Positions 11,744 to 41,276 of a stretch of DNA of 64,000 nucleotides are shown in pieces. The DNA is from an uncultured Gammaproteobacteria bacterium. Lineage in GTDB: Bacteria; Pseudomonadota; Gammaproteobacteria; JAKDMP01. The DNA lies in NCBI GenBank assembly GCA_964586925.1, contig CAZPJI010000009.1, positions 3,683-67,682 of the forward strand, read 5' to 3'. Within the stretch, counting starts at the first letter, position 1, and each line of letters starts with the position of its first letter. The position numbers and the translations under genes were made by a program. The notes under the pieces are model-generated. The model worked only from the letters and a program-made list of their open reading frames with translations, had not been told where the DNA came from and did no database searches.

Positions 11744-11811
11744 GGCATCAGTGTGTGTTTCGGACCCCTGGAAAGTCTAACTGAACCCGGCCATGAGGGC
11801 GGGGATGGGCA

Positions 11812-20073: not shown

Positions 20074-20228
20074 TCGCCCAGGTGCGTCGCTAAAAACTCT
20101 CGCCAAGACGCAAAGACCGCCGAGAATCTATTTTTGCGGGCGTGGCTAATCGTAGCCTGGTAAGTGGTTGGTTCGTAATAGGAAATCTTTGCGGCTCTGC
20201 GCCTTTGCGAGAATTCCTTTTGCAGGTC

Positions 20229-20837
20229 TCAGCCGGTTACGGACTGGCGGTTTTCCGCGATCAGTTGCTCCAGCGCCGCTTTGCCGATGCGCTGCATCGG
20301 ATGGCCGTCCACGGCATCCATGGGCGCCTCGCGCAGCTCTTTCAGGTTGAAAACCGTGATTTCCACAACCTGGCCGTCGATCGAAAAAGCGAACATGGGA
20401 ACGTCGCGCACACTTCCGTTGCGCCAGCTGTGGCGGCGGGTGTTTTCCTCGTAATGTACGCCCAGATCGGCCAATCGAAAGACCAGGCGCTCGGGCGGTT
20501 CCACAAATACATGCAGTTCCACGCGGGCGTGAGCCGTGGCGACTTCTGCGAGGATGGCGCCGGTAGCGCGGGTTTCCATGTCTTCCAGCCGTTGCATGAC
20601 GTCCAGCGCCAGCCTGCGCAGCCGGTCCAGGCGCTCCGGTTGGGAGGAGGCTTCAAACAGTCGCTGATGTTCTATAAGGGCCGTTTCGATTTCCCGATTG
20701 GTGGGCAGATGCTTGAGCGCAAGCCCGAGGTGCGCGGCCGCTTTTTGCTTGGCGCCGAGAAAGTCATGCCGGCCTTCCTCGGCGATAATGCGCGCCGCTT
20801 CCTGGGCCAACAGGCGTCTGGCATGCTCGGGTTTCAT
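20229..20837 (-). CDS. Conserved hypothetical protein (202 aa), co-directional with and 4 nt downstream of mrcA
   Basis: Long ORF with coding-like composition and no recognisable motif. The first half is alpha-helical and charged. Confidence 0.5.
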   Translation of the reverse strand: MKPEHARRLLAQEAARIIAEEGRHDFLGAKQKAAAHLGLALKHLPTNREIETALIEHQRLFEASSQPERLDRLRRLALDVMQRLEDMETRATGAILAEVATAHARVELHVFVEPPERLVFRLADLGVHYEENTRRHSWRNGSVRDVPMFAFSIDGQVVEITVFNLKELREAPMDAVDGHPMQRIGKAALEQLIAENRQSVTG

Positions 20838-20840
20838 GGC

Positions 20841-23330
20841 TTAGCCGCCTCCACCTCCGCCCCCGTACAGGCTGGGGGTTTTCTGTGACTGGCTCATCGG
20901 AGGCAGGTTGTCGCTGCGATAGATTTCCCAGATCGCATTCGGGTCACCCGCATTGCAGCGCAGGCCGGTTTTCGAGTCGATGCGGACGGTGACCAGGCCT
21001 TCGGGCATGGGAGTTGGGTTTTCCGGCACGCCTTCCAACGCCGGGCCCATGAAGCTGATCCACATGGGCAAGGCAGCACGTGCGCCGGATTCACCCGGGC
21101 CCAGTGAGTGGGGCTGATCGTAGCCGACCCAGGTCACGGTGACCAACCGCGGGCCAAAACCGTCGAACCAGGCGTTGGAGAAATCGTTGGTGGTGCCGGT
21201 CTTCCCAGCCAGATCGTCGCGGCCGAGGCTGCGTGCGGCGCGGCCCGTGCCGCTGGTGATGACACTGTGCAACATGTTTGCCATGAGATAGGCGTTCTGC
21301 GGGGGCAAAGTGCGAGGTGCAAGCCTCGGCACGTTGGTCGGCTGTGAGACCAGCACTTGTGCCGAGTGTTTGGCGGCTGCCGTCTGGCTCGCCGCCGCAA
21401 CCGCGGAGGCGGGTGAGGAGACACTCATGGGAGCACTGGGCGCGGTGGCCGCAACCGTGGCCTCCGCAGGCACGGGAGCCGTTGCGGCGGTGGAGGCCGA
21501 ACAGGGTCCGCATGCGACCCAGGGGTTGGCTTGCGCGAGAAGCGCTCCGCCCGGCCCGGTCACGCGTTGGATGTAATACGGCCGTACCAGAAAGCCCCCA
21601 TTGGCGAACACGGCATAGCCGCGAGCCATGGTGAGGGGACTGAGGCTGGCGCTACCGAGCACCAGGGTCAGGTTATGCGGCAGCTCGTCGGGCGTGAAGC
21701 CGAAGCGTCGGGCCCAGTCGATGGCCTTGTCGACGCCGATACGCTGGAGAATACGCACCGACACAATGTTGACCGAATGCACGAGCCCTTCTCGCAGGCG
21801 CATCATGCCCGAAAAGTTTTTCTCGTAATTGCGTGGGCGCCACAGGTCCGATAATTGCTGGTTGGCTACCGAGACAAAAGGCGCGTTGGATATCAGTGTG
21901 GAAGCGGTCAAGCCTTGGTTCAGGGCAGCGGAGTAGACAAAGGGTTTGAACGATGAGCCTAGTCCCCGGCGGGCCTGGATCGCCCGGTTGAATTTGCTTT
22001 GCTGAAAAGAGAAACCGCCGTCCAGCGCAACGATGGCCCCATCATAGGGATCGATGGACACCAATGCGCCCTGTACCTGCGGGATTTGCCCGAGTTCCCA
22101 GCCTGATTTGCCGTTATTTATCGCATAGACCACGTCGCCACGCTTGAGGAAGACGTCGGCCTTGTCAGCATTCCCGGCGGCCCAGTTGAGCCCTTGCCAA
22201 TCGATTTGGACAGCACCGTGGCCCTGGACGTAAGCGGCGACCGATTTGTCCTTGACCTGCGTGATCACGGCGGGTTGCAGATTGGCTACCGCCGGTGTTG
22301 TGGTGACAGCCGCCGCCAGAGTGGCCGTTTCAGGGTGGGGCGGCAGCTTGATTTGCGCCACCGGCCCGCGCCAGCCCTTCTCGCGGTCGAGGCGTTCGAG
22401 GTTGGCGACAACGGCTTTCTCCGCGGCTTTCTGCAGTTTGGCGTCGATCGTCGTGACGACCTGAAAGCCCGCGGTGTAGGCGCTTTCACCGTATTGGCTG
22501 GTGATGTAGTCACGAACCATTTCCGCTACATAGGGTGCGGACACGGTGACTTGAGGGCCGTGGGGCTTGGCCGTGATCGGGGCGGACATGGCACGCTGGT
22601 AGGCGCTTTGGTCGATATAGCCCAGATCGTGCATGCGTCCGAGCACATAGGCGCGGCGTTCGAGCGCACGCTTCGGATCGGCCAGGGGATTGAAAGCCGA
22701 GGGTGCCTTGGGCAGGCCGGCGATCATCGCCATCTGGGCCAGATCCAGTTGCCAGACCGTCTTGCCGTAATAGAGTTCAGCCGCGGCACCCACGCCGTAG
22801 GCGTGATTGCCGAGGTAAATCTTGTTCAGGTAGAGGCGCAGAATGTCTTCCTTGGACAACTCGTGCTCGATGCGCTGGGCGAGGAAGACTTCGCGGAGTT
22901 TGCGGATATAGAGCTTTTTGCGTGTGAGGAAGAAATTGCGCGCAACCTGCATGGTAATGGTGCTGGCGCCCTGTGACTTGCGCCCGGTTTCGATCAGATT
23001 GATCGCCGCACGGACCATACTGCGTGGATCGACGCCCGAGTGCTCGAAGAAACGGTCATCCTCGGCGGACATGAAAGCTTCAATCAGCAAAGGGGGGATT
23101 TGCTGGTACTCAAGCGGGATACGGTGCTTGGAACCGAATACCGCCATCAGCTTTCCGTCACGTGTGTAAATGCGCAACGGCACCTGCAGGTGAATGTCTT
23201 TGAGCACCGCCACCGACGGCAAACTGGGGACTACATACAGATAAATACCGACTAGGCCGACCAATCCGGCCAGGGACAGGGCGGCGGTGGCAATGAGGCT
23301 GTAGCGCAGTATTTGGCGGCGTCGGATCAT
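20841..23330 (-). CDS. mrcA: Penicillin-binding protein 1A (bifunctional transglycosylase/transpeptidase)
   Basis: GT51 motifs (EDDRFFEHSGVD, GASTITMQVARN) and transpeptidase SxxK (SSFKPF), SxN and KTGTT. The C-terminus ends in an unusual GGGGGGG tail. An ATG start at 23330 (MIRRRQIL) is preferred over TTG at 23348. Confidence 0.9.
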   Translation of the reverse strand: MIRRRQILRYSLIATAALSLAGLVGLVGIYLYVVPSLPSVAVLKDIHLQVPLRIYTRDGKLMAVFGSKHRIPLEYQQIPPLLIEAFMSAEDDRFFEHSGVDPRSMVRAAINLIETGRKSQGASTITMQVARNFFLTRKKLYIRKLREVFLAQRIEHELSKEDILRLYLNKIYLGNHAYGVGAAAELYYGKTVWQLDLAQMAMIAGLPKAPSAFNPLADPKRALERRAYVLGRMHDLGYIDQSAYQRAMSAPITAKPHGPQVTVSAPYVAEMVRDYITSQYGESAYTAGFQVVTTIDAKLQKAAEKAVVANLERLDREKGWRGPVAQIKLPPHPETATLAAAVTTTPAVANLQPAVITQVKDKSVAAYVQGHGAVQIDWQGLNWAAGNADKADVFLKRGDVVYAINNGKSGWELGQIPQVQGALVSIDPYDGAIVALDGGFSFQQSKFNRAIQARRGLGSSFKPFVYSAALNQGLTASTLISNAPFVSVANQQLSDLWRPRNYEKNFSGMMRLREGLVHSVNIVSVRILQRIGVDKAIDWARRFGFTPDELPHNLTLVLGSASLSPLTMARGYAVFANGGFLVRPYYIQRVTGPGGALLAQANPWVACGPCSASTAATAPVPAEATVAATAPSAPMSVSSPASAVAAASQTAAAKHSAQVLVSQPTNVPRLAPRTLPPQNAYLMANMLHSVITSGTGRAARSLGRDDLAGKTGTTNDFSNAWFDGFGPRLVTVTWVGYDQPHSLGPGESGARAALPMWISFMGPALEGVPENPTPMPEGLVTVRIDSKTGLRCNAGDPNAIWEIYRSDNLPPMSQSQKTPSLYGGGGGGG

Positions 23331-23464
23331 CGGAGGATTCCTACACAATTAATCGAATTTTGCATGACTTGCATTGACATCTTCAACCAATGCCTTATAG
23401 TTGGACATCAGGTCCCCTTGGGGTTGGGGCTCCGCATGGTGCGGGGCCAAGAGAGAATCAGATT

Positions 23465-24526
23465 ATGGCACGTAAACCACGAACCAAACCTGTGCTCGGC
23501 TTGGACATCAGTACCTCCTCGGTAAAGGTGGTAGAACTGGCCAAGGCCGGCTCATCCTATCGTGCGCAGACCTATGCGGTCGAGCCGATGCCTGACAATG
23601 CCATTGTCGACAAAGTCATCGTGAATATCGAGGGCGTCGGCGAAGCTGTGCGCCGTGCTTACAAGCGCTCGCGCAGCCGCCTCAAGGACGCGGCGATCGC
23701 TATCGGCGGGGCAACAGTCATCACCAAGACCGTACAGATTCCCAAGGGTCTGAACGCGCGCGAGCAGACGGAACAAATCGAATTGATGCTGCCGCGCATC
23801 ATTCCATTCGCGCTCGAAGAAGTGTCCTATGACTTCGAGGAGATTGGTCCTTCCGCAAGCGACGAGAACAGCACGGATATCCTGCTGGTGGCCACCCGGC
23901 GCGACAATGTTGAGCATCGCCAGGCCGTGCTCGAGGTTGCGGGCCTGAAGGCCGCCATAGTGGATTGCGAAGTCTTCGCGCTGGAGAATGCCTACAAATT
24001 ACTGGACGATGCGGTAAACGATAAAGATGAGGACAATGTTGTTGCCCTAGTCGACTTCGGCTCTGCAACCACGTCTTTCAGCGTGTTTGAAAACGGGCGC
24101 ATCATTTATACCCGCGACCAGGCATTTGGCGGCAGGCAACTGACAGACGCGATCATGCAGCGCTACAACCTCTCGTACGAGGATGCCGGACGCGCCAAGA
24201 GGCGCGGAGGACTGCCCGAGTCTTATCATGAAGAAGTCCTGGTGCCTTTCATCAACGACATGGCCCAGCAGGTCAACCGGGCACTGCAATTTTTCTATGC
24301 GGCGACTACCGAGCATACGAAGGTCAAGCAGGTTTTCATTTGCGGCGGCTGCGCATCGATTCCCGAGGCAGCTGAGCACATCGGCGAAAGACTGGACTTG
24401 CCGACCCGAGTTGCCAATCCGTTCACATCGCTCAAGCTGACAGGCCGCGCCCAGGCACAGGGTATCGAACAGGATGCGCCGGGGCTGATGGTTGCGTGCG
24501 GCTTGGCCATGAGGAGTTTCAGCTGA
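23465..24526 (+). CDS. pilM: Type IV pilus assembly protein PilM (actin-like ATPase fold)
   Basis: MARKPRTKPVLGLDISTSSVKVVEL is the PilM N-terminus. It is divergent from mrcA, the classic ponA/pilMNOPQ arrangement. Confidence 0.9.
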   Translation: MARKPRTKPVLGLDISTSSVKVVELAKAGSSYRAQTYAVEPMPDNAIVDKVIVNIEGVGEAVRRAYKRSRSRLKDAAIAIGGATVITKTVQIPKGLNAREQTEQIELMLPRIIPFALEEVSYDFEEIGPSASDENSTDILLVATRRDNVEHRQAVLEVAGLKAAIVDCEVFALENAYKLLDDAVNDKDEDNVVALVDFGSATTSFSVFENGRIIYTRDQAFGGRQLTDAIMQRYNLSYEDAGRAKRRGGLPESYHEEVLVPFINDMAQQVNRALQFFYAATTEHTKVKQVFICGGCASIPEAAEHIGERLDLPTRVANPFTSLKLTGRAQAQGIEQDAPGLMVACGLAMRSFS

Positions 24527-25107
24527 TGGCGCGCATAAACCTATTGCCTTGGCGTGAATGGGAGAACAGCCAGCGGCGCCAGCGTTTTTTGCTCTCGCTG
24601 GTGCTTTCGCTGGTCGTGGGTATCGTGATTATTGTGTGGGGGACGTTCATGGTAGGCGGTGCCATGAGTATTCAGCAGGGTCGCAACGCCTACCTGCGCC
24701 AGCAGCTTGCTCAGCTGGATCAGAAGATCAAGACGATCAAGGATCTCAAGAAGGAGCGCGAGTCGCTTTTGCGGCGCATGCGGGTGATCGAGAAGCTGGA
24801 GCAAAGCCGCTCGCAGGTGGTTCATTTGTTTGACCAGCTTACCCGCACGGTTCCGGACAGCGTTTATCTCACCGGGTTGAGAAACCATGATGGCGTATTG
24901 TCGATAGACGGCGTGGCCCAATCACCTGCCGGCGTCTCCACATACATGCAGAATATTGCACACTCGCCGTGGTTGGGCGATCCTAATCTGACGGTGGTCC
25001 GCACGCAAAGCGAGGGCAAACTGAGCCGCAGTGAATTCACTGTGACAACCAAACTGATACAGCCATCCGACAAGAAAGGCAAAGATGCCGATGGAGGTGG
25101 GTCATGA
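24526..25107 (+). CDS. pilN: Type IV pilus assembly protein PilN
   Basis: MARINLLPWRE is the conserved PilN N-terminus. One TM segment. The start overlaps the pilM stop. Confidence 0.85.
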   Translation: MARINLLPWREWENSQRRQRFLLSLVLSLVVGIVIIVWGTFMVGGAMSIQQGRNAYLRQQLAQLDQKIKTIKDLKKERESLLRRMRVIEKLEQSRSQVVHLFDQLTRTVPDSVYLTGLRNHDGVLSIDGVAQSPAGVSTYMQNIAHSPWLGDPNLTVVRTQSEGKLSRSEFTVTTKLIQPSDKKGKDADGGGS

Positions 25108-25742
25108 ATTTTCAGGACCTGAACAATCTCGATCTGCGTGATATCAATTTCTCCAATGTCGGAGAATGGCCCTTGGCAGGGCGTCTATTCGTAATGGCAA
25201 TAATTGTGGTCATCGTACTTGCGATCGGCTACTTTCTGGTCATACGCGGCAAACTGGAAGACCTCCACTATGCGCAGCAAGAGGAAGTGTCGCTCAAGCA
25301 GAAATTCGAAGCCAAGCAGCGCCTGGCGGCCAATCTCGATGCCTACAAGGCGCAGCTTGCCCAGATGCACAAGGATTTTGGTGCTCTTCTGAGGCAATTG
25401 CCCAGCAAGACGGAAATCGAGGCGCTGTTACGCGATGTGTCCCAGACTGCGCAGGAAGACGGTCTGGCACAGCAACTGTTTCAACCCGGCAAGGAACAGC
25501 GCAAAGGCTTTTATGCCTACAAGCCGATTTCGATGGGCTACCGGGGCAGCTATCAACAGATCGCCAAGTTTGTGAGCGATGTCTCGTCGTTGCCCCGTAT
25601 CGTCACCGTGCGTAATTTCGAGATGGCGCCCATCAAGAAAGACGATGGTAGCGAGCTGAATTTCTCCGTCACCGCCTATACCTACCGCTACCTCAGCGAA
25701 GGCGGTGTGGTCGTGAATAAAGGACGGAGGGGTAGACGATGA
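25104..25742 (+). CDS. pilO: Type IV pilus assembly protein PilO
   Basis: Position in the operon, a single N-terminal TM segment, a coiled coil, and ATGA coupling to pilN. Confidence 0.8.
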   Translation: MNFQDLNNLDLRDINFSNVGEWPLAGRLFVMAIIVVIVLAIGYFLVIRGKLEDLHYAQQEEVSLKQKFEAKQRLAANLDAYKAQLAQMHKDFGALLRQLPSKTEIEALLRDVSQTAQEDGLAQQLFQPGKEQRKGFYAYKPISMGYRGSYQQIAKFVSDVSSLPRIVTVRNFEMAPIKKDDGSELNFSVTAYTYRYLSEGGVVVNKGRRGRR

Positions 25743-26254
25743 ATGCCGCGAGCATGCGTCGTGTGGCCGTGTGTTTGGCCATATTTTGTGCCCTGCCACT
25801 TGCGGGCTGTGGGGATCAGGCTGCCCTGCAAGCCTGGGTGGCGCACGTCAAGGCGCGTCCGGGCGGAAGAATAGCACCGGTACCCAAGCCAAAACCCTAC
25901 GAGGGTTATATCTACTCGGCGGGTGGGCTGCGGTCGCCGTTCATTCCTTCATCCAAGCCGGATAACAGTGTTCGTCCCAATGCTCACAAAAAACAGTTCC
26001 TGGAGCAGTTCCCACTGGATTCATTGAAGCTGGTGGGTGAGATTCAAATCAACGGCACCAACTACGCATTGATCGAAGACCCGCAGGGGTTGGTCCACAA
26101 GGTCACTAAAGGTAATTACATGGGGCAGAACAACGGCCGCATCACGGCGATTCTGCCGAACGGGATCAGGTTGACTGAAATTGTGCCCAATGGCAGCGGC
26201 GGGTGGCTCAAGCGCCCCGCGTCGCTCTCGCTGGCACAAAAGTCTGGAGGCTAA
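25739..26254 (+). CDS. pilP: Type IV pilus assembly lipoprotein PilP
   Basis: Lipobox LAGC, a size of 171 aa, and position between pilO and pilQ. Confidence 0.8.
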   Translation: MNAASMRRVAVCLAIFCALPLAGCGDQAALQAWVAHVKARPGGRIAPVPKPKPYEGYIYSAGGLRSPFIPSSKPDNSVRPNAHKKQFLEQFPLDSLKLVGEIQINGTNYALIEDPQGLVHKVTKGNYMGQNNGRITAILPNGIRLTEIVPNGSGGWLKRPASLSLAQKSGG

Positions 26255-26257
26255 ATA

Positions 26258-28402
26258 ATGAAACACCATGCATACAAAGGCTTGATGGCAGCTACCCTGG
26301 CTGCGGCGTTTATCGGCTTTGCAGTAGGGCAGGCGCAGGCCGATCAGACACGGTCCCTGACATCTGTCAAGACAGTCACTCTGCCAAGCGGTGCCGTCGA
26401 GGTCGACATGACGCTCAACCAGGCGGCTCCCAAGCCCCTTTCGTTCAGCGTTGACCATCCGGCCATGATAGTGCTTGATCTTCCGGGTACCGGTGTGGGG
26501 CTCTCGCAGAACCAGAAGATGTTCAACGTGGGCGATCTGACCAGCGTGCAGGTGGCGGCAACCAGTAGCCGCACTCGCGTCGTGCTCAATCTGCAGTCGA
26601 TGACCGCCTACAAAACGCGTATCGACGGCAATCATGTTTACGTAACCCTCGGCGGTGGCAAGAGCCAGATGGCCAGCAACAAGATGAATGCCGGGGAGAA
26701 TACTTTTGGGCCCAAGTCGGGCAGTTCATCCGGTGCCCGCCAACAAGTGACCGGCACGGACTTGACCGGTGTCCATTTCCATCGCATGCCTGACGGAGGT
26801 GGCCGTGTTGAGATTGGTCTGCCGGGTCCGGACGTCAGCGGGAACGTCAACCAGGTAGGCGATCGCATCACGGTGCATTTCCCCGGTGCTACCGTTCCGA
26901 AGAAATTGGAAGAAAGTCTGGGGGTAAGCGACTTCGCGACCCCGGTATCCACCATCACAACCCGCAACACGCCCAATGGCGCGGAGGTCGTGATCAAGGG
27001 TTCGGGCAACTTCACCCAGATGGCTTTCCAGGCCAACAACACTTTTGCGGTCGAATTGAAGCCGGTCACGCTCGCCCAGCAAGCCACTGCGCTGAAGCAG
27101 TACAAGGGCAAGAAGCTGACCTTGAACTTCCAGAACATACCGGTGCGTTCGGTACTGCAGATTCTTGCCGATTTCACCGGCAAGAATATCGTCGTATCCG
27201 GCAATGTAGGCGGTAATATTACGCTGCGCTTGCACGATGTTCCCTGGGACGAGGCGCTGCACATCATTCTCCAGACACAGGGTCTGGCCATGCGCCAGAG
27301 CAATGACGTCATCATGGTGGCCCCGGCATCGGTTTTTGCCAGCCAGGAACAGAGTCAACTGGAAGCGAGAAACCAGATTGAAAAACTGGTACCGCTGTCC
27401 ACGGCCTATATCCAGGTGAACTACGCCAAGGCGGGAGACCTGGCTGATTTGATCAAGTCGCAGAAAACTTCCTTGCTTTCGCCCCGTGGCTCCATAACGA
27501 CCGATGCGCGTACGAATACCCTGATTGTTCAGGACACCAATGAGCACATCGACCAGGTGCGCAAGCTCGTGCATGTGCTAGACATTCCAGTGAAGCAGGT
27601 GCTTATCGAATCCCGCATCGTAGTTGCCAGTAATACCTATCAGGAGTCGCTCGGTGCGCGCTTCGGCATTACAGGCGTACAGACTGGTGCCAACAGCACT
27701 ATTGCGACGACCGGGAGCTTGACCGGTACCCAGCAGATGCTGAACGGGCAGTCTGCCGGTTCGCCCGGACCCTACCCGACGCCGACAAACCTTAATGATT
27801 TGCTGAACGTAAATCTGCCGGCCTCCAACGCTGGCGGGTCGGTAGGCCAGCTTGCGGTCGCGATACTCAACCACAATTTTGAAGTGGATCTGGAGCTTTC
27901 GGCGCTCCAGGCGGAAGGAAAAGGCGAGGTGGTATCCAGTCCGCACGTGATTACGGCCAATCAGCAGCAGGCCCATATCGAGCAAGGTGTGGAGATTCCC
28001 TATCAGAATGCGGCATCCAGCGGTGCCACGACGGTTCAGTTCAAGAAGGCCGTTTTGAGCCTCGACGTGACGCCACAGATCACGCCGGACAACCGGATAA
28101 TGATGAAAATCGAGGTTCGCAAAGATAACGTGGGTCAGACGGTGCAAACCGCCAATGGTGGTTCGGTGCCCAGTATCGACACGCGCCGGGTCAACACGCA
28201 GGTGCTTGTTGATAATGGCGATACTGTGGTGTTGGGCGGCATTTACGAGACTAATGTGACGAACTCTGTTAGCAAAGTCCCGCTGCTGGGCGATATCCCC
28301 TTGCTGGGCTTCCTCTTCCGTCAGAAGTCGAAGACCAACAATAAGGACGAGCTGCTGATTTTCGTTACACCCAAGATACTTGCTGACAGCTTGAGCCAGT
28401 AA
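26258..28402 (+). CDS. pilQ: Type IV pilus secretin PilQ
   Basis: 714 aa. AMIN, N0/N1 and a C-terminal secretin domain (VLVDNGDTVVLGGI...VPLLGDIPLLGFLFR). Confidence 0.9.
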   Translation: MKHHAYKGLMAATLAAAFIGFAVGQAQADQTRSLTSVKTVTLPSGAVEVDMTLNQAAPKPLSFSVDHPAMIVLDLPGTGVGLSQNQKMFNVGDLTSVQVAATSSRTRVVLNLQSMTAYKTRIDGNHVYVTLGGGKSQMASNKMNAGENTFGPKSGSSSGARQQVTGTDLTGVHFHRMPDGGGRVEIGLPGPDVSGNVNQVGDRITVHFPGATVPKKLEESLGVSDFATPVSTITTRNTPNGAEVVIKGSGNFTQMAFQANNTFAVELKPVTLAQQATALKQYKGKKLTLNFQNIPVRSVLQILADFTGKNIVVSGNVGGNITLRLHDVPWDEALHIILQTQGLAMRQSNDVIMVAPASVFASQEQSQLEARNQIEKLVPLSTAYIQVNYAKAGDLADLIKSQKTSLLSPRGSITTDARTNTLIVQDTNEHIDQVRKLVHVLDIPVKQVLIESRIVVASNTYQESLGARFGITGVQTGANSTIATTGSLTGTQQMLNGQSAGSPGPYPTPTNLNDLLNVNLPASNAGGSVGQLAVAILNHNFEVDLELSALQAEGKGEVVSSPHVITANQQQAHIEQGVEIPYQNAASSGATTVQFKKAVLSLDVTPQITPDNRIMMKIEVRKDNVGQTVQTANGGSVPSIDTRRVNTQVLVDNGDTVVLGGIYETNVTNSVSKVPLLGDIPLLGFLFRQKSKTNNKDELLIFVTPKILADSLSQ

Positions 28403-28437
28403 TTACGAATACGAGCCGGGTTCTCGAAGGGGTAGTT

Positions 28438-30168
28438 ATGAAAAAGAAATTTGCATTGATCGCAGTATGCAGCTTGGTTTTCACCCTCGCGGGCTGCGGT
28501 GGCAACAGTTCCTCGCTGGGTAGCGGCGGTAGCAGTAGCGGCGGTACCGGGACCGGTGGTGGCGGTTCGTCCGGTGGTCCCGTCGAATTCGGCAGCGGCA
28601 GCGGCTCCAGTTTTGTCCAGGGCGTACTGGGCGTGTCTGTGCCCAGTCTTTCGGCCGGCGGTTCGACCACGATTTCCGCTTCGTTACAGAACTCCGATGG
28701 TACTCCTTACACCACTTCGGCGACGGTGACGTTCACTTCACCGTGCTACCAGAACGGGTTGGCCACTTTTTCCAGTAACGGCACGACTACGAACAGCGTC
28801 AGCACGAGTACTGGCCAGGCCAATATTACCTACACAGCCCAGGGTTGTAGTGGCAGCGATACCATCACAGCCACGACCTCGGCGGGGGGGATTAATTTGA
28901 CCGCCGTGGGGACGGTGACCGTAGCCGGCGCGTCAGCCGGCTCGATCCAATTCGTGTCCGCAAACCCGGCCACCATTTCCCTCCAAGGTGGTGGCGGGCA
29001 GACCACCTCAACGGTCATTTTCAAGGTCTCGGATGCCTCGGGTAGCCCTGTGCCCAACGTTAAGGTCCAGTTTTCCCCGAATACCACGGTAGGAGGCATC
29101 GTACTGACCCCCACGAGTGCCACGACAAACAATTCCGGCCAGGTGCAGACCGTGCTCCAGGCCGGCACCCAGCACACAACGGTACGTATAACCGCCCAGA
29201 CTACGAATCAGGCGGGCACTACGATTTCCACCCAGTCGCCCGGCATCGACATCAGTACGGGGATTCCCACCGAGAAGAATTTCTCGCTCTCCATCAGCAA
29301 GCACAATGTCGAGGGCTTCGACTATGATGGCGTGACCGACACCGTGACGGTACTCCTGGCGGACCGTTTCAATAACCCGGTTCCTGACGGCACTGCGGTG
29401 TCGTTCACGACCAATGGCGGACATATTGATCCCTCCTGCACGACAACGAACGGCACTTGTTCGGTGACCTGGACCAGTGCTAATCCCAGGCCTTCGGGCT
29501 CCGGCCTCTCCGTGCTGGGGCACGCGGAAATCCTGGCTTACACTACGGGCGAAGAGAGTTTCACGGATGCCAACGGTGATGGCGTATTCGACGATAACGA
29601 CCAATTCAGTCTCTATACCGGATCGGGCGACAACTTCTTTGGTCCGCCTGCGCAGGACGACATCGGCGAAGTTTACCTGGACCAGGATGAGTCCGGGTCA
29701 TATAAGACCGGCGACTATTTCTTCGACTTTAATCAGGACGGTGTCAGGAATGGGCCGGACGGTAAATACCATGGCCAAGGATGCGTGGGCACGGCCACGG
29801 TTCAATGCGGCACATCCACCCTGGGTATTGGCGAACAGAGCTGCATCGTGATGTCCGGATCGAATCTGTTCATATCCGGTCCGACCAGCTTGAGCGTTGG
29901 CCAGACGGCCACCTATACGATCACGGACGAGAATGGCAATGTCCCTGCCGTCGGTACGGGGCTGGGGATAAATTCCAGTGGTCCCTCGGTAACCATTCTT
30001 CAGACGTCAGTACCGGATATCGGTTGCGGCAGCTCTCCGCCAGGCTCCGGAGTTTACTCCTTCCAAGTTTCAGTGTCTTCTACGTCAGCTACGGGCAGCT
30101 TCCTAATCAAAGCGACGGACCCCGTCTCGGGAACGGTAAGCTACAGCCTACCGATTCAGGTCAACTAA
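28438..30168 (+). CDS. Large surface lipoprotein with tandem bacterial Ig-like (Big/invasin-like) domains
   Basis: Lipoprotein signal MKKKFALIAVCSLVFTLAGC followed by a G/S-rich linker. Repeated ~90-aa beta-rich modules (TxTAxxxxG..ITAxT motifs) resemble Big_1-type domains. It is inserted between pilQ and aroK. Confidence 0.7.
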   Translation: MKKKFALIAVCSLVFTLAGCGGNSSSLGSGGSSSGGTGTGGGGSSGGPVEFGSGSGSSFVQGVLGVSVPSLSAGGSTTISASLQNSDGTPYTTSATVTFTSPCYQNGLATFSSNGTTTNSVSTSTGQANITYTAQGCSGSDTITATTSAGGINLTAVGTVTVAGASAGSIQFVSANPATISLQGGGGQTTSTVIFKVSDASGSPVPNVKVQFSPNTTVGGIVLTPTSATTNNSGQVQTVLQAGTQHTTVRITAQTTNQAGTTISTQSPGIDISTGIPTEKNFSLSISKHNVEGFDYDGVTDTVTVLLADRFNNPVPDGTAVSFTTNGGHIDPSCTTTNGTCSVTWTSANPRPSGSGLSVLGHAEILAYTTGEESFTDANGDGVFDDNDQFSLYTGSGDNFFGPPAQDDIGEVYLDQDESGSYKTGDYFFDFNQDGVRNGPDGKYHGQGCVGTATVQCGTSTLGIGEQSCIVMSGSNLFISGPTSLSVGQTATYTITDENGNVPAVGTGLGINSSGPSVTILQTSVPDIGCGSSPPGSGVYSFQVSVSSTSATGSFLIKATDPVSGTVSYSLPIQVN

Positions 30169-30176
30169 TTGATGGT

Positions 30177-30209
30177 GAACGGGTGTCCGCCTATGTTGGA
30201 CACCCGTTC
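30177..30209 (+). terminator. Perfect 12-bp stem hairpin (GAACGGGTGTCC-N9-GGACACCCGTTC) immediately downstream of the Ig-like lipoprotein gene
   Basis: Seen directly in the sequence. No U-tract follows, so this is either a rho-dependent/stability element or a regulatory hairpin ahead of aroK. Confidence 0.45.
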
Positions 30210-30306
30210 AAGGCACTGCCGAAAATCCGGGTTGCCTCCACACGACCCGATTGACTCCATCCATCTGGATGTCTCATAGCCGGGCTCGTGGAAAAAATAA
30301 TTCTTT

Positions 30307-30842: not shown

Positions 30843-31928
30843 TTGAGACAATTGCGTGAACCCGGTGTGGGTTATCCCGTATGGATCGGAAGTGGGAGTG
30901 AGCCCGCGGGTGCGTTGAATACCTTGGCGACTGGGCGTGATGTGATGGTCCTGAGCGATCGCAACGTGGCTCCACACCATCTGGACAACCTGTGCCAGGG
31001 CCTTGACAGTGCGGTGCGGATCGAAAAACTGGTCCTGCCGGCAGGCGAGGACAGCAAGTCGCTCACCGGTTTTTCGCGAGTGCTCGACACGCTCATCGAC
31101 GCTGCATTTCATCGTGATGCCTTGCTGGTAGCGTTGGGGGGCGGGGTGATAGGCGACCTTGGCGGTTATGCAGCGGCTTGCTACCAACGCGGCATTGACT
31201 GGGTCGCGGTGCCGACCACTTTGCTGGCCCAGGTCGATGCTGCGATCGGCGGAAAGACTGCGATCAACCATGCCCAGGGCAAGAACCTTATCGGCGCCTT
31301 CCACGATCCCTTGGCCGTCTGGGCCGATCCCTCGCGCCTGGATAGTCTCGCGACGAGGGAATACCGTTCAGGCATCGCCGAAGTTATTAAGTACGGCCTC
31401 GGCCTGGACGGCGATTTCTTTGCCTGGCTGGAGGAGAATGCCGAAGCACTGGACGGGCGTCGGTCGGACGTGCTCACAACCGCCATCGAGACCAGCGCGC
31501 GCACCAAGTTGAAGGTTGTAGCCGCCGACCGGACGGAGCGTGGGAGCCGTGCCCTGCTCAACTTGGGACATACACTGGGCCATGCACTGGAAACGGCCTT
31601 GGGACACGGTACTTGGTTGCACGGCGAAGCCGTGGCCGTGGGCCTGCTTGTGGCCGCCGAACTTTCAGCACGGCGAGGGACATTGGAGCGGGGATCAGTC
31701 TCGCGGTTACGTGCATTGCTTCAGGCCTTCAACCTGCCCGTGAAATTCCCCGCGGACGTTGACCACGATACTCTCGCACACGCCTTGGAACTGGACAAGA
31801 AAATCCTTTCGGGCCGCTTGCGGTTTATCGGCCTGGAAGCACTCGGCAAGGCGGCTGTCTGGAGCGATGTGGAACAGGGCGAATTCTTCGCAGCGGTCAA
31901 TGCCGCGCAAGAAGCGGGCGCCGGCTGA
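30843..31928 (+). CDS. aroB: 3-dehydroquinate synthase
   Basis: 361 aa. NAD-binding GGGVIGDLGGYAAA and the characteristic AIGGKTAINH. Confidence 0.9.
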   Translation: MRQLREPGVGYPVWIGSGSEPAGALNTLATGRDVMVLSDRNVAPHHLDNLCQGLDSAVRIEKLVLPAGEDSKSLTGFSRVLDTLIDAAFHRDALLVALGGGVIGDLGGYAAACYQRGIDWVAVPTTLLAQVDAAIGGKTAINHAQGKNLIGAFHDPLAVWADPSRLDSLATREYRSGIAEVIKYGLGLDGDFFAWLEENAEALDGRRSDVLTTAIETSARTKLKVVAADRTERGSRALLNLGHTLGHALETALGHGTWLHGEAVAVGLLVAAELSARRGTLERGSVSRLRALLQAFNLPVKFPADVDHDTLAHALELDKKILSGRLRFIGLEALGKAAVWSDVEQGEFFAAVNAAQEAGAG

Positions 31929-33887: not shown

Positions 33888-34166
33888 CTACTTGCGTTCA
33901 GTTCGGTTTATTTCTGACTTAAGGCGGGTGGCAATACGCTTTCTTGCAACTTCGTCAAGCCGGGTTTCTGCGGTTGCTGATTCCAGGACCTTGCGAAAAT
34001 GACCGGATTTCATCCACCGGCGCAGGAGGGCGAGCTGCTTCTTGTATTGCTGACAACCGTCACACATGTGCAGGTGAAGTCGCAGCATAAGCCGGCTATG
34101 CCAACTGATCGGGTGATCCATTTGATCGGATAGGGTGCGGGCCGCTTCGGCGCAGGTCATCATCAC
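33888..34166 (-). CDS. Zinc-finger (zf-HC2/ZAS-type) anti-sigma factor, soluble
   Basis: 92 aa with HLHMCDGCQQY (H-x3-C-x2-C). A 4-nt overlap couples it to the upstream ECF sigma gene. Confidence 0.7.
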   Translation of the reverse strand: MMMTCAEAARTLSDQMDHPISWHSRLMLRLHLHMCDGCQQYKKQLALLRRWMKSGHFRKVLESATAETRLDEVARKRIATRLKSEINRTERK

Positions 34167-34813
34167 GCTTCATTTCCTGTCGATGGTTGGGAGAACCATG
34201 AGCGTTGTATGCAGTCACGCAGTCCGAGACGTGCGCGATGCAGTCTGACCCACAGATTGGATTTGGAAATACCTATGGAATCACAGACCTCATCGCTGTC
34301 CACGTCGTCGATCTCGATCAATCTGATGGCGACCGAAAGCGTTTTTGGAAGACCGTTGATACAGCGCTCGATCATATTCCAGAACTGGTCGTGCTCTACC
34401 ATGCTGTCAGGGTCTTGCCAAATACCCGGCGGCTTCCGCCAGGCACCTGAGCTGTCGAAGTTGCGTTCCAGAAGCGTATCGTTTCCGGGTTCGATTTCGA
34501 TCTGGATTTCGCGTGTGTTATGTCGGAATTGATCGAGTATCTTGTGCTTGAGGATTCCGAACAACCAGGTCTTTTCACTGGATTTGCCTTGATATTTGCT
34601 ACAGGCGTTAAGGGCTGCAAGTAAACATTCCTGTACGGCATCCTCGGCTTGGGTGCGATGGCGCAATCGTGCATACGCATAGCGAAACATTTCATCCCCG
34701 TATCTGTCCAGCCAGCTTTCTGGATCCAGTTCGTTTTCCCGGGAGGCTTTCTCTGGTGAGTCTTTCACAATAGGATCTCCATCTGGAGGAGGAAGGTTGC
34801 CATCGGCATTCAT
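34163..34813 (-). CDS. ECF (sigma-70 family group 4) RNA polymerase sigma factor
   Basis: Region 2 (FRYAYARLRHRTQAEDAVQECLLAALN) and region 4 HTH (SDEVCDSIGISKSNLWVRLHRARLGLRDC). Confidence 0.85.
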   Translation of the reverse strand: MNADGNLPPPDGDPIVKDSPEKASRENELDPESWLDRYGDEMFRYAYARLRHRTQAEDAVQECLLAALNACSKYQGKSSEKTWLFGILKHKILDQFRHNTREIQIEIEPGNDTLLERNFDSSGAWRKPPGIWQDPDSMVEHDQFWNMIERCINGLPKTLSVAIRLIEIDDVDSDEVCDSIGISKSNLWVRLHRARLGLRDCIQRSWFSQPSTGNEA

Positions 34814-35028
34814 GCGGTTTCTTCAGTGCAACGTCTTGCAATGCATTCCGAATGCGTTTCGATAGCCGAAACCATCTTCCTGACCAGTGCGGGGCGAGAG
34901 AATGACGGGTCGTCCATGTAGTTATTCACACTTGCGGCTGAGAATATTAATACCATAAAAACAATGGCGATCACACCTCCTGCAAACAGGAGATACTCCG
35001 CCACTTGTTTGGAATGTCCTCTGAACAT
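34810..35028 (-). CDS. Small single-pass membrane protein (72 aa) translationally coupled upstream of the ECF sigma gene
   Basis: The hydrophobic core LLFAGGVIAIVFMVLIF, then a Cys/His-containing tail (HSECIARRC). An ATGA overlap couples it to the sigma gene. Confidence 0.45.
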   Translation of the reverse strand: MFRGHSKQVAEYLLFAGGVIAIVFMVLIFSAASVNNYMDDPSFSRPALVRKMVSAIETHSECIARRCTEETA

Positions 35029-35111
35029 GTTCCTCTCCTTGAGTTCTGCATTGGATCATCCCTGCCAAGCTTCCGTTGCTCTCCGTTGTGCAAAGCAATG
35101 GAAAGGGGTGA

Positions 35112-36077
35112 TCATCGAGATATTGCCACCTTCGATGCGCTCAAAATGGGGTTTGATCGAGACCGTTTACCTGTGCCGGTAAGCGTCACGTAACCGGCAC
35201 CGAGAATCGCTCCGTACACGAGGCTGAGCACCAGTAAAAGTGCGACGCCTACCCATCCGAAACGCCATGCGAAGAGACCGGCGTGTCCGAGAGGCGCAAC
35301 TGTCAACATAGCGAGCAACCAGGCGCCGAAACCGAATAAGGCACCACGTACGGCTGAGTGGCCCGGGAGGTGCGGATAGAGCCAGGCGAAGGCCAGCCCC
35401 CCGATGACGATTGCCGCAATGAGGAATATCATCCATCCGCCGATAACACCTGTATGGGTGGCTTTGCCGATCAGCATCGCTGGGTCGAGCCCCGGCAATA
35501 CACCGTTTAGTGTCTTGAGCAGCAGGATGGCGCTGAGTGCGGCAGTCGCCATGAATGCGGCGCCTCCGCCGCCCAACCAGCGGTTGAGGTCTGCGTATGC
35601 GAGCGTTGAGTCGGCGGGTTTGAAGCCACTCGGGAAAAGCCGTGTGAGCAAGTGATCCAGAGAGAGCCGGCCCGGGCCGTAAAAGGTCAGTGCCAATAGC
35701 ATGAGTCCCCAGGCTTGGTGGTCCGGGAAACCCGTTGACCAGATGTCGGGGTAAGATGCGACGGCAATGATGTTGTAGACGAACAGGAAACCGGAAACGT
35801 ATCGCCCCATCAGACCGAAAGCCAGAAGCGCCGGAAACACGAGTTCTGCGAAAGTGCCGGTATAAGCGGCGACGGCAGGGCTGAGCAGGGGAGTGTGGTA
35901 GACGTATTTAAACAGCGCAATAGTGCCGGGCATGTCCGCAATTTTGGTCAACCCGGAACGGAAAAAGGCTTCGGCGATCCATAGTCTCATGAGAAGCATG
36001 GCAAGGGGTGTCGAATAGGCGAGCCAAGCGTTCACCCGTTGGGATAATCCCAGTCCGCTTCGTACGATGTTCTTCAT
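35112..36077 (-). CDS. DoxX-family integral membrane protein (bufferin-operon BufD-like)
   Basis: Multiple TM helices. DoxX-like N-terminus (LAMLLMRLWIAEAFFRSGLTKI). The ATG at 36077 with a GGAGA RBS is preferred over 36140. Confidence 0.75.
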   Translation of the reverse strand: MKNIVRSGLGLSQRVNAWLAYSTPLAMLLMRLWIAEAFFRSGLTKIADMPGTIALFKYVYHTPLLSPAVAAYTGTFAELVFPALLAFGLMGRYVSGFLFVYNIIAVASYPDIWSTGFPDHQAWGLMLLALTFYGPGRLSLDHLLTRLFPSGFKPADSTLAYADLNRWLGGGGAAFMATAALSAILLLKTLNGVLPGLDPAMLIGKATHTGVIGGWMIFLIAAIVIGGLAFAWLYPHLPGHSAVRGALFGFGAWLLAMLTVAPLGHAGLFAWRFGWVGVALLLVLSLVYGAILGAGYVTLTGTGKRSRSNPILSASKVAISR

Positions 36078-36862
36078 CTTGATTCTCCGAGTGTCGATGT
36101 GGCGGCGAAGATGCCAGCCGTATGGTGGCGTTGTAAGCACGCCTCAAGGTCGAACGAATCGCTCGATTCTTCGGCGCATGCCAGTGCCGCAGTCAAGCAC
36201 GCCCCGTTCGCGCAGGCGTCGAGAAACACATACTCTCCGGCATCCAGTGCCAGTACCAGAACGTCGTCATGAGGTCGTACGATCAAAACGCGCTCGCTAC
36301 CAGCGTTCAGCGCAGGTGGTTCGCCGGGCTCGTCCTCGAGGCAGTAACGCCACAGCGTCAGGACCGGGTATTGAGACGCCACAAGCCGGACGCTCGGATG
36401 GATCGGCAGCCGTTCGTTGCCGGGGAGAATCGAGGCCGGGTCGAATGGATTGGCGTCGGCCGCGAGCAGCGCTTCCTGTCGTGCCCATTCGAGCCGGGCG
36501 ATGTCGGCCAGATAGGGGATATTTGCCGCCTCGGGAAGGTGAGCCAGAAAATCGGCGAAGCCGGCACCGTATCGATTGAGATCTCCGTACGAGGAAGGAT
36601 GTGCGCCTACGAAACGTTGGGTGGCGCCTTCGAAAAAGTCGTCGCCCACGAGTCGCGCCACGGCGGGGAAGCTCGTAAGCAGGGCATCGGTGAAATTGAG
36701 CAGGTAACTGTTGCGGTACACGGCCATGCGTGCTGCTGGCGTCAGTCCGGCGCCGTGCACCCATTGCAGCACGCGGCTATCTTCGCCGCGAACGTGGCGG
36801 ACAAATTCCTGCTGGGTTTCAAGCAGCGCAGGCACGTGTTCTCTCCAAAATCGACTCGGCAT
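36074..36862 (-). CDS. DUF2063 domain protein (MNIO partner, BufC/MbnC-like)
   Basis: N-terminal DUF2063 signature (LTPAARMAVYRNSYLLNFTDALLTSFPAVARLVGDDFFEGATQRFVGAHPSSYGDLNRYG). It overlaps the 3' end of the DUF692 gene. Confidence 0.8.
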   Translation of the reverse strand: MPSRFWREHVPALLETQQEFVRHVRGEDSRVLQWVHGAGLTPAARMAVYRNSYLLNFTDALLTSFPAVARLVGDDFFEGATQRFVGAHPSSYGDLNRYGAGFADFLAHLPEAANIPYLADIARLEWARQEALLAADANPFDPASILPGNERLPIHPSVRLVASQYPVLTLWRYCLEDEPGEPPALNAGSERVLIVRPHDDVLVLALDAGEYVFLDACANGACLTAALACAEESSDSFDLEACLQRHHTAGIFAATSTLGESR

Positions 36863-37697
36863 GATTTGCTTCGTCCAACAGGGTCTCCAGCGGCGGGATG
36901 TCGCGGTCCCACTCGATCAGGGTCGGTCGCGGTCCCAGGCGCCCGATGGCATGGGTATAAAGATCCCAGACCGGCGTCGCGACGCGCCTGCTGTGCGTGT
37001 CGATGAGTAGGGTCACGCCTTGCACATCTTTGCGAATGTGTCCGGCAAGATGAATTTCCTCGATCGCTTTGACCGGCATCGCGTTCAGATAGTGGTATGC
37101 GTCGAAAGCGTGGTTGACCGCGTTCACGTAGATATTGTTGATGTCGAGCAGAATGCCGCAGCCGCTGCGCTGAGCGAGTTCTGCCAGAAATTCCCATTCC
37201 GGGATGATTGAGTCTGTGAATTCAAGGTAGCTGGATACGTTCTCGATCAGGATTCGCCGGCCGAGAAATTCCTGCGTCTGCTCGACGCGTTCAACGATGT
37301 GGGTAAGCGCCTCCGCCGTATAGGGCAGGGGCAGGAGGTCGTTAAGGTGTACGCCTCCGGCAGCACCCCAGCATAGATGCTCGGAAACCAGGCCGGGAGA
37401 AAACCGATCGACCAGGGACTTTAATTGTGCAAGATGCATGTCGTCGAGCGGGTCCGTCGAGCCCAGTCCCAGGCCTACCCCATGCAGGCTCAGCGGGTAC
37501 TCGCAACGCACTTTTTCCAACAGTCGCAATGTCGGACCACCGGCGGCAAAAAAGTTTTCGCTATGGACTTCAATGAAACCAACTGCCGGTCGACGCTCAA
37601 GTAGTTGGGAGTGATGCGGCGGCCTGAGGCCGATCCCGGCGTGTGCCGGGATCGACTCCAGTGCCGGACACGAATGCTGTCGCGCCGGGGATGACAT
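36819..37697 (-). CDS. DUF692 / MNIO (multinuclear non-heme iron-dependent oxidase, MbnB/BufB-like; TIM-barrel)
   Basis: GIGLRPPHHSQL...VGFIEVHSENFFAAGG...YPLSLHGVGLGLGS...VSEHLCW...DLLPLPYT...RRILIENVSSYLEF matches the HI1600/MbnB family consensus. Confidence 0.85.
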   Translation of the reverse strand: MSSPARQHSCPALESIPAHAGIGLRPPHHSQLLERRPAVGFIEVHSENFFAAGGPTLRLLEKVRCEYPLSLHGVGLGLGSTDPLDDMHLAQLKSLVDRFSPGLVSEHLCWGAAGGVHLNDLLPLPYTAEALTHIVERVEQTQEFLGRRILIENVSSYLEFTDSIIPEWEFLAELAQRSGCGILLDINNIYVNAVNHAFDAYHYLNAMPVKAIEEIHLAGHIRKDVQGVTLLIDTHSRRVATPVWDLYTHAIGRLGPRPTLIEWDRDIPPLETLLDEANHAESILERTRACAA

Positions 37698-38008
37698 CAG
37701 CCGGCGTTACCGGGTGTGGTGCTGCCGCCCGCGATCTTATGACATAGCCCCGCCGGAACGAGCAGAAATGCGCTCGGATCGCGGGCCTTTTTATCCTGTC
37801 CGGCGCAGGAGTGCCCCGGCGATTGGCAATCGTTCTTGAAGGCCGCGTTGATGCCGTAGCATTTTTCCATGCTGGTGCTGGTGGGCATTGTTTTCATCGC
37901 GTGTGCCTGGCTCATGTTGCCGGCAAAAGCGCCTTGAGTGCCCGCAAGAGTGCTTGCCGCGACGAGGCTGGCAAGGGCCGATTTGATGACGAGTGAACGT
38001 TTATCCAT
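37697..38008 (-). CDS. DUF2282-type Cys-rich secreted precursor peptide (bufferin BufA-like)
   Basis: 104 aa. Sec signal peptide (MDKRSLVIKSALASLVAASTLAGTQGAFA), then a core with four Cys in the conserved pattern EKCYG-x8-NDC-x5-HSCAG-x17-GLC. RBS GGAGA ahead of the ATG at 38008. An ATGA overlap couples it to the MNIO gene. Confidence 0.75.
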   Translation of the reverse strand: MDKRSLVIKSALASLVAASTLAGTQGAFAGNMSQAHAMKTMPTSTSMEKCYGINAAFKNDCQSPGHSCAGQDKKARDPSAFLLVPAGLCHKIAGGSTTPGNAG

Positions 38009-40170: not shown

Positions 40171-40245
40171 GGTGTTTCTCCGTAATATTGGATTCAGTCA
40201 GTCGACTTATTGACTTGAAGAATGCCAGTTTACAGCCTCAATGCG

Positions 40246-41217: not shown

Positions 41218-41276
41218 TGCATGCTCGTGCGTCGCAAAGCCCCAAGTATAAGGACAGCCTGTGTCCGAACGCCGAT

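Follow-up and report, generated by a model that had tools for sequence, protein, structure and literature searches.

What does a lipoprotein with immunoglobulin (Ig)-like domains do at the end of an operon that builds a type IV pilus? The question is raised by a stretch of 64,000 nucleotides (nt) of contig CAZPJI010000009.1 from an uncultured Gammaproteobacteria bacterium (the window, meaning this whole stretch), in which an open reading frame (ORF) at 28438-30168 on the + strand encodes a 576-residue lipoprotein between the pilus secretin gene pilQ and aroK. We have good confidence that the lipoprotein gene is real, that its product combines four Ig-like domains with an acidic insert bridged by Cys, that the gene has been conserved as the last of the pil operon in the clade of its carriers, and that its product belongs to a large uncharacterised lipoprotein family. 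From its sequence and genomic surroundings, the lipoprotein is a plausible, undescribed accessory of the pilus. As to what it does, the reading that we tentatively favour is that of an adhesin-like binding arm, stabilised by calcium and made together with the secretin, that would be tethered where the pilus machine meets the outer membrane.

The N-terminus of the protein reads MKKKFALIAVCSLVFTLAG followed by Cys20 and has the charged n-region, hydrophobic h-region, and lipobox (L-A-G-C) of a signal peptidase II substrate, Cys20 being the predicted lipidated residue. This Cys was kept in all 53 of 53 aligned orthologues, and a lipobox followed by Gly is near-universal across the family. Since the residue after Cys20 is Gly rather than Asp, the Lol pathway should deliver the lipoprotein to the outer membrane; the Asp that acts as inner-membrane retention signal in E. 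coli is absent, and outer-membrane sorting is predicted on this basis. Residues 21-58 are rich in Gly and Ser by composition, and homologues retain the length (~20-40 residues) and composition of this tether, not its sequence. Upstream, the stop codon of pilQ (28400-28402) is separated from the ATG of the lipoprotein gene by a 35-nt gap. The elements of the gene are as follows:

28427-28432, + strand: Shine-Dalgarno-like AAGGGG, read from the sequence, 5 nt before the lipoprotein ATG and inside the pilQ spacer
28438-28497, + strand: type II (lipoprotein) signal peptide, residues 1-20, with a KKK n-region, a hydrophobic core, and the lipobox LAG before the Cys
28498-28581, + strand: Gly/Ser/Thr tether, residues 21-48, disordered, its low complexity running on to about residue 58
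28582-28938, + strand: domain 1, a beta-sandwich by AlphaFold with an invariant Cys103-Cys137 pair, nothing significant in Pfam, mean pairwise identity 0.54
28939-29259, + strand: domain 2, Big_1/Invasin_D3-type Ig-like; when scanned alone, Big_1 E = 4.5e-9 and Invasin_D3 E = 5.7e-7; mean pairwise identity 0.57
29260-29553, + strand: domain 3, Big_1/Invasin_D3-type Ig-like, with a DRFNNPVPDG motif and an invariant Cys334-Cys341 pair
29554-29817, + strand: coil-rich acidic insert, residues 373-460, with three EF-hand-like loops and an invariant Cys449-Cys457 pair; a predicted Ca2+-binding module
29818-30165, + strand: domain 4, the C-terminal beta-sandwich, modelled with a predicted local distance difference test score (pLDDT) of ~94-98; the most variable part, mean pairwise identity 0.33

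An AlphaFold model built from the alignment of the 53 orthologues (pLDDT 87.5, predicted TM-score 0.71) placed four beta-sandwiches at approximately residues 49-167, 168-274, 275-372, and 461-576, with almost no helix and with residues 1-44 disordered (pLDDT <50). When the whole protein was compared with Pfam, both Big_1 (PF02369; 44.3 bits, cut-off 34.9) and Invasin_D3 (PF09134; 38.7 bits, cut-off 33) were recovered, and a domain-by-domain scan confined these matches to domains 2 and 3. An earlier note on this DNA had read from the letters an LAGC lipobox with a Gly/Ser linker, about four Ig-like beta-sandwich repeats of the Big/invasin type, and, immediately downstream, a perfect 12-bp hairpin (30177-30188 pairing with 30198-30209), and all three descriptions hold. 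Conservation is uneven along the protein, with mean pairwise identities of 0.54-0.57 for domains 1-3, 0.48 for the acidic insert, and 0.33 for domain 4. The three Cys pairs (103/137, 334/341, and 449/457) are invariant in all 53 sequences, which fits folding outside the cytoplasm.

The acidic insert between domains 3 and 4 lacks regular secondary structure in the model (pLDDT 68-93) and gave neither a Pfam match nor a fold match in the PDB. It contains three 12-residue acidic loops, at residues 377-388 (DANGDGVFDDND), 414-425 (DQDESGSYKTGD), and 430-441 (DFNQDGVRNGPD), which by eye match the pattern D-x-[DN]-x-[DNS]-G-x-x-[DNK]-x-x-[DE] and are conserved across orthologues; a profile scan returned only Dockerin_1 at E = 2.2. 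We scored a loop as EF-hand-like when its 12 residues had an acidic or amide side chain at positions 1, 3, 5, 9, and 12 and Gly at position 6, and it is from this pattern that the loops are predicted to bind Ca2+.

With the full model, Foldseek searches of the PDB brought up nothing but tandem-Ig arrays of a generic kind (complement MG domains, SbsB, invasin 1cwv, and FdeC 4e9l) with TM-scores of at most 0.26. A separate model of residues 362-576 (pLDDT 82) gave no Foldseek PDB match with E <1e-3, and the matches of domain 4 were weak and only generically Ig V-set-like. Searching PDB sequences with a profile brought up no relative, the only matches being a weak one to an Ig domain of a sialidase and some to signal peptides. 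At the level of family models, NCBIfam gave only a sub-threshold signal-peptide match to LptM, and Pfam recognised no more than domains. We also considered a bacterial alpha-2-macroglobulin and rejected it: MG4 stayed below threshold (17.4 versus 24.7 bits), no A2M or thioester domain was present, and the C3/C5 matches of Foldseek were generic.

The gene lies in the following setting, in which pilM to pilQ (23390-28402, + strand) encode the alignment complex and secretin of a type IVa pilus:

20841-23348, - strand: ponA (Pfam/NCBIfam)
23374-23401, + strand: sigma-70-like promoter match TTGACA-16-TATAGT (11/12) in the ponA-pilM intergenic region
23390-24526, + strand: pilM (Pfam PilM_2)
24496-25107, + strand: pilN (Pfam PilN)
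25104-25742, + strand: pilO (Pfam PilO)
25739-26254, + strand: pilP (Pfam PilP)
26258-28402, + strand: pilQ (Pfam AMIN, STN, Secretin_N, and Secretin; TIGR02515, 524 bits)
30176-30210, + strand: hairpin 8 nt after the lipoprotein stop, folded by RNAfold with 13 Watson-Crick pairs, one G-U pair, and a 7-nt loop
30307-30828, + strand: aroK (Pfam/NCBIfam), housekeeping
30843-31928, + strand: aroB (Pfam/NCBIfam), housekeeping

Further downstream of aroB come pyrF and hemE. Judged by its sequence, the promoter match at 23374-23401 is likely where transcription of the pil unit begins. It overlaps the start (23390) of the longest pilM ORF, the PilM_2 match begins only at residue 37, and PilM of relatives is about 354 residues long, so that the true pilM start probably lies some 20-25 codons downstream.

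Transcription signals around the lipoprotein gene fit membership in the pil operon. We found no promoter-like or terminator-like site in the pilQ-lipoprotein spacer. After the gene, the 81-nt stretch holding the hairpin had a folding free energy of -36.5 kcal/mol (z-score -5.1). The hairpin fails as a canonical intrinsic terminator in the window, as no U-tract follows the stem, and it was rejected as a dispersed element resembling repetitive extragenic palindromes, as the window holds no second copy. No known RNA families or tRNAs were found in the window. Judged from its position and folding, the hairpin at 30176-30210 probably ends the pil transcript or stabilises it. In 66 orthologous loci we then took, from the 100 nt that follow the stop codon, the 50-nt segment with the most stable fold. 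Its median energy was -28.6 kcal/mol behind the lipoprotein gene; coding controls gave -18.9 and the region behind pilQ gave -16.3 (Mann-Whitney p = 3e-25), and several of these loci carry a classic GC stem with a U-tract after the lipoprotein gene. Median spacers were 32 nt from pilQ to the lipoprotein gene (70 loci) and 81 nt from there to aroK (68 loci). Across species, the lipoprotein gene therefore has what is expected of an operon member, namely, the same strand, a short spacer, a terminator-like hairpin after it, and none before it. Because the strong hairpin follows this gene and not pilQ, it is terminal in the pil operon of the clade, and the simplest reading of the sequence is a single transcription unit that would run from pilM through the lipoprotein gene and end at the hairpin.

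To place the gene among genomes, we retrieved more than 3,000 relatives, which the source databases label "hypothetical" or "Ig-like domain-containing." Scanning one genome per species gave 324 with a relative, and contexts were taken from the best 80 loci. The genes pilMNOPQ lie directly upstream in 70 of these 80, with aroK-aroB next wherever the contig is long enough, even though protein identity among the species representatives falls to about 40%; orthologues of ~580 residues at 58% and 43% identity occupy the same position. In six other loci the contig is cut off upstream of the lipoprotein gene, with aroK still downstream in five of them. One locus is rearranged (L081), placing aroK between pilQ and the lipoprotein gene, which lies about 3.5 kb from pilQ, and three stand alone amid unrelated genes (L041, L077, and L078). 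A gap of ~800 nt follows pilQ in L084. The carriers are mostly labelled Steroidobacteraceae or unclassified Gammaproteobacteria and form a large, mostly uncultured gammaproteobacterial clade of soil and sediment. Two pil-block contigs are binned as "Mycobacterium sp." (L035) and "Candidatus Dormiibacterota" (L049), probably through binning errors; the match statistics of L035 are identical to those of a Steroidobacteraceae locus (L036). A 72%-identical orthologue (P0007) bears the Joint Genome Institute name "methionine-rich copper-binding protein CopC"; the window protein has no CopC match, and the name is probably a misannotation.

G+C content across the lipoprotein gene is 0.55-0.60, equal to that of its neighbours, and the identity of the lipoprotein between genomes tracks that of PilQ (r = 0.86) at about 4 points lower. 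A recent horizontal insertion was rejected on the grounds of this matching G+C and the conserved position, which together indicate an old, vertically inherited operon member. In a relative at 58% identity (L002/L003, 10615-11192), a MazE-antitoxin/PIN-toxin pair sits between aroB and pyrF, indicating that the block does accept insertions.

The family extends well beyond this locus. A HMMER scan of 1.84 billion cluster representatives gave 5,619 matches at E ≤1e-3, of which 2,406 reached E ≤1e-30. Many members have 550-600 residues, and others reach 4,280 residues with many cassette repeats; they match nothing in Pfam other than Ig-like domains, chiefly Big_1 and Invasin_D3. Of the first 120 homologues listed, most carry a lipobox, as do 38 of 43 short cluster representatives and 68 of 94 long ones. 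Paralogues of ~970 residues duplicate the unit of domains 2 and 3 with the predicted calcium-binding insert. One of them (L007) adjoins GspA/GspB-like genes, and a consistent link of these paralogues to secretin assembly genes was not borne out, as L088 and L092 have no such neighbours; both of these, and L094, lie amid unrelated genes. A 799-residue form (L095) again has aroK-aroB downstream.

Other members accompany different filament systems. A 989-residue paralogue with 37% identity (P0051) closes a complete Tad cluster as its final co-directional gene, in the order rcpC-rcpA-tadE-tadG-tadZ-tadA-tadB-tadC-tadD-outer-membrane barrel-paralogue. A metagenome scan seeded with long forms added 80 loci, and the context was readable for 42. 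Twenty of the 42 are pilQ/aroK-linked and three are Tad-linked (L098 and L099 between tadG and tadD, and L163 convergent with the cluster); three more are short contigs in which that small outer-membrane barrel gene lies shortly before the family member, and one (L134) heads a cluster resembling that of the mannose-sensitive haemagglutinin (MSHA) pilus, directly before an mshM-like gene and a secretin gene. The domains of the L134 cluster are AAA_22, Secretin_N_2 with Secretin, TPR, MshEN with T2SSE, and T2SSF. The remaining 15 had no pilus genes within 6 kb, and the neighbours of three stand-alone loci are housekeeping genes. The Tad-associated subfamily (L097, L098, L099, and L163) thus lies in or beside clusters in three gene arrangements. 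In a rough tree of the core region, built by neighbour joining and without bootstrap support, Tad-linked and barrel-adjacent members form a clade of their own apart from the large pilQ-linked group, which includes a few displaced stand-alone members (L041, L126, L146, and L164). A gene for an outer-membrane beta-barrel of ~228 residues (Pfam OMP_b-brl) repeatedly precedes the lipoprotein gene in the Tad-linked subfamily (L097, at 9261-9947, L103, L114, L133, and L163). From the gene arrangement, this conserved barrel-lipoprotein pair could be a means of anchoring the lipoprotein or of displaying it.

These surveys bear on several claims of the earlier note. Its view that the locus departs from a direct secretin gene-aroK order is borne out by E. 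coli K-12, where we checked that mrcA/hofMNOPQ-aroK-aroB has nothing between hofQ and aroK; the same direct adjacency holds in Pseudomonas aeruginosa. Its word "inserted" is misleading for a gene that keeps its place in 70 of 80 species genomes and shares the G+C of its neighbours. The note had counted against its own proposal a gene kept at the same position in all relatives and devoid of a predicted Ig fold: the shared position was found, and an Ig-like fold was predicted. Its link to the pilus machine is supported by the conserved gene order, by the hairpin placed after the lipoprotein gene, and by the separate Tad and MSHA-like associations, whereas the fold lends no support to its term "pilotin-like."

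How might such a protein work? In the reading that we favour, the product would be cleaved and lipidated at Cys20 and taken by the Lol pathway to the outer membrane, where a Gly/Ser tether of 28-38 residues would carry a rigid arm of four Ig-like beta-sandwiches. The three EF-hand-like loops between domains 3 and 4 would bind Ca2+ and, together with three disulfides, would make the arm stiffer. The distal, variable domain 4 would be the likely contact surface and domains 1-3 a conserved stalk, and short-range attachment by the arm would complement the long-range pilus. We infer surface exposure and a binding function from the extracellular adhesin-type domains, from giant relatives unfit for the periplasm, and from the variable distal domain, which together favour this reading. 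Several points weigh against it. No route for surface display of the lipoprotein is evident within the window, and lipoproteins sorted by the Lol pathway stay by default on the periplasmic side of the outer membrane. Furthermore, aroK and aroB adjoin the secretin gene both in E. coli and in this organism, which shows that synteny can persist without a functional link, and the relatives that stand alone (15 of 42 metagenome and 3 of 80 genome loci) show that the family does not depend on pili. The variability of domain 4 could also reflect mere weak constraint.

The main rival to a binding arm is a periplasmic accessory of the secretin, anchored by its lipid in the inner leaflet of the outer membrane, whose tether would let the Ig arm run along the outside of the PilQ barrel or its periplasmic rings as a belt or strut, and which would stabilise, space, or help assemble the secretin as a pilotin or scaffold does. 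Default Lol sorting would place the protein in the right compartment for this, and the genes agree: the lipoprotein gene is co-directional with pilQ and immediately downstream, relatives adjoin TadD and the outer-membrane barrel in Tad clusters or the mshM-like and secretin genes at L134, and paralogue L007 lies beside GspA/GspB-like genes. There is also a precedent in GspP (DR_1364), an Ig-fold lipoprotein that forms a belt on the secretin of Deinococcus radiodurans (PMC10828601). We nevertheless consider this account rather doubtful. The lipoprotein has none of the TPR, PulS/OutS, or LysM features of known secretin accessories, its 576 residues far exceed known pilotins or the 155 residues of GspP, and the profile search of PDB sequences yielded no relative. 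Moreover, TadD, the known Tad pilotin, is retained in Tad clusters that carry a paralogue, giant multi-cassette and stand-alone relatives fit a dedicated machine part poorly, and the distal domain is poorly conserved. A broader reading seems unlikely to us, in which type IVa, Tad, and MSHA-type pili would each have recruited this family separately, as a general and so far unnoticed partner of their secretins in the outer membrane; its members would act as an Ig belt or strut on the secretin, or as surface lipoproteins at the pilus exit, possibly helped by the secretin or by the small barrel of Tad clusters.

Equally unlikely, in our view, is a general envelope lipoprotein without a tie to pili, which would have slipped between pilQ and aroK a single time, in an ancestor, and been kept since because the block is rarely rearranged. 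The very long persistence of the unrelated aroK and aroB by the secretin gene is consistent with such inertia, as are the many family members alone among housekeeping genes and the few members of the pilQ clade that have moved elsewhere (L041, L126, L146, and L164). Inertia alone, however, hardly explains a Tad subfamily in three arrangements and an MSHA-like member, nor does it account for the terminator-like hairpin having shifted from after the secretin gene to after the lipoprotein gene, or for a short pilQ spacer that has a ribosome-binding site and no promoter match. Finally, the lipoprotein might be cargo that the pilus machine moves to the surface through the secretin, as the type II secretion system does for pullulanase (PulA). 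PulA has a Gly/Ser-rich tether after its lipid-modified Cys, and the tether of the window lipoprotein is alike; family members adjoin secretin genes in three filament systems, and their domains are of extracellular type. Yet PulA carries an Asp after the Cys, which holds it at the inner membrane for pick-up, where the window lipoprotein has Gly, and stand-alone relatives exist, so we consider a cargo role very improbable.

The matter extends beyond this locus, as the parts list of the type IVa outer-membrane module (PilQ, PilF, TsaP, FimV, and recently SlkA/B) rests on few model organisms. A conserved sixth operon gene would add to it a candidate component, or a co-expressed adhesin, that is missing from the models, and the Tad and MSHA-like relatives strengthen the case. 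If the lipoprotein is unrelated to pili, the locus shows how far conserved gene order can mislead.

Elsewhere in the window, a cluster at 34163-38008 (- strand) resembles a bufferin-type locus for copper-related ribosomally synthesised and post-translationally modified peptides. Annotated through the matching contig L001, it comprises an extracytoplasmic function (ECF) sigma factor, a small ORF, DoxX with DUF6789, HvfC_N, MbnB_TglH_ChrH, and a BufA1-family precursor. A gene at 51128-54469 (- strand) encodes a 1,113-residue Tricorn-like protease with PD40 repeats, Tricorn_C1, PDZ_Tricorn, and Peptidase_S41; after it, on the opposite strand, lies a gene for an OmpH/Skp-like chaperone (54595-55182). 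Four ORFs of 248-369 residues had no Pfam match at E ≤1e-5, at 11777-12562 (- strand), 20142-20888 (+ strand), 40222-41331 (+ strand), and 55186-55971 (+ strand).

Among known systems, the lipoprotein is comparable with the pilotins PilF, PilW, and Tgl, which are outer-membrane lipoproteins tied to the PilQ secretin. These are alpha-helical TPR proteins of ~250 residues, encoded away from pilMNOPQ in Pseudomonas. The window lipoprotein, in contrast, is all-beta, has 576 residues, and is encoded inside the pil operon, and Pfam and NCBIfam gave no TPR or PulS_OutS match for it. A pilotin in the strict sense is therefore unlikely, both from these features of the fold and from the presence of TadD beside the Tad paralogues. 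PilF is required for the multimerisation and localisation of PilQ (Koo et al. 2008, as cited in PMC13392014). The likeness to GspP concerns the fold: GspP is attached physically to the secretin as a 15-mer belt, in place of the usual helical pilotin belt (PMC10828601). Unlike the window protein, GspP is a single IPT/TIG domain.

The tandem Big_1/Invasin_D3 domains recall those that form the rod of invasin, intimin, and FdeC, in agreement with the Foldseek matches to 1cwv and 4e9l. Those proteins have an N-terminal beta-barrel anchor and a lectin-like tip, whereas the window protein is lipid-anchored and has an Ig-like tip preceded by EF-hand-like loops. An inverse autotransporter was accordingly rejected, as Pfam found neither a barrel nor a lectin domain, and the protein begins with a lipoprotein signal and ends in an Ig-like sandwich. 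LigA and LigB of Leptospira are also lipoproteins with tandem Ig-like domains that bind Ca2+ and serve as surface adhesins; their domains are Big_2 and not Big_1, and they belong to spirochaetes and are not known to be linked to a pilus operon.

In Pseudomonas aeruginosa, the secretin complex consists of PilQ and TsaP, with PilF and FimV as secretin-assembly factors and SlkA/B as plug proteins (2026; PMC13392014). TsaP, SlkA, and SlkB resemble a candidate accessory of the kind considered here in acting on the PilQ channel, but they are described as periplasmic proteins and not as lipoproteins, and slkA/slkB (PA5122/PA5123) are separate genes outside the pilMNOPQ operon (PMC13392014). Pfam gave no LysM or FlgT match of the TsaP type for the window lipoprotein, and none of PilQ, TsaP, PilF, FimV, or SlkA/B is an Ig-domain lipoprotein. 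Our literature search brought up no account of an Ig-domain lipoprotein encoded after pilQ, nor did we find a family model, solved structure, or paper describing this one. Taken together, these comparisons leave the lipoprotein as a candidate accessory of a well-known machine, assembled from known types of domain.

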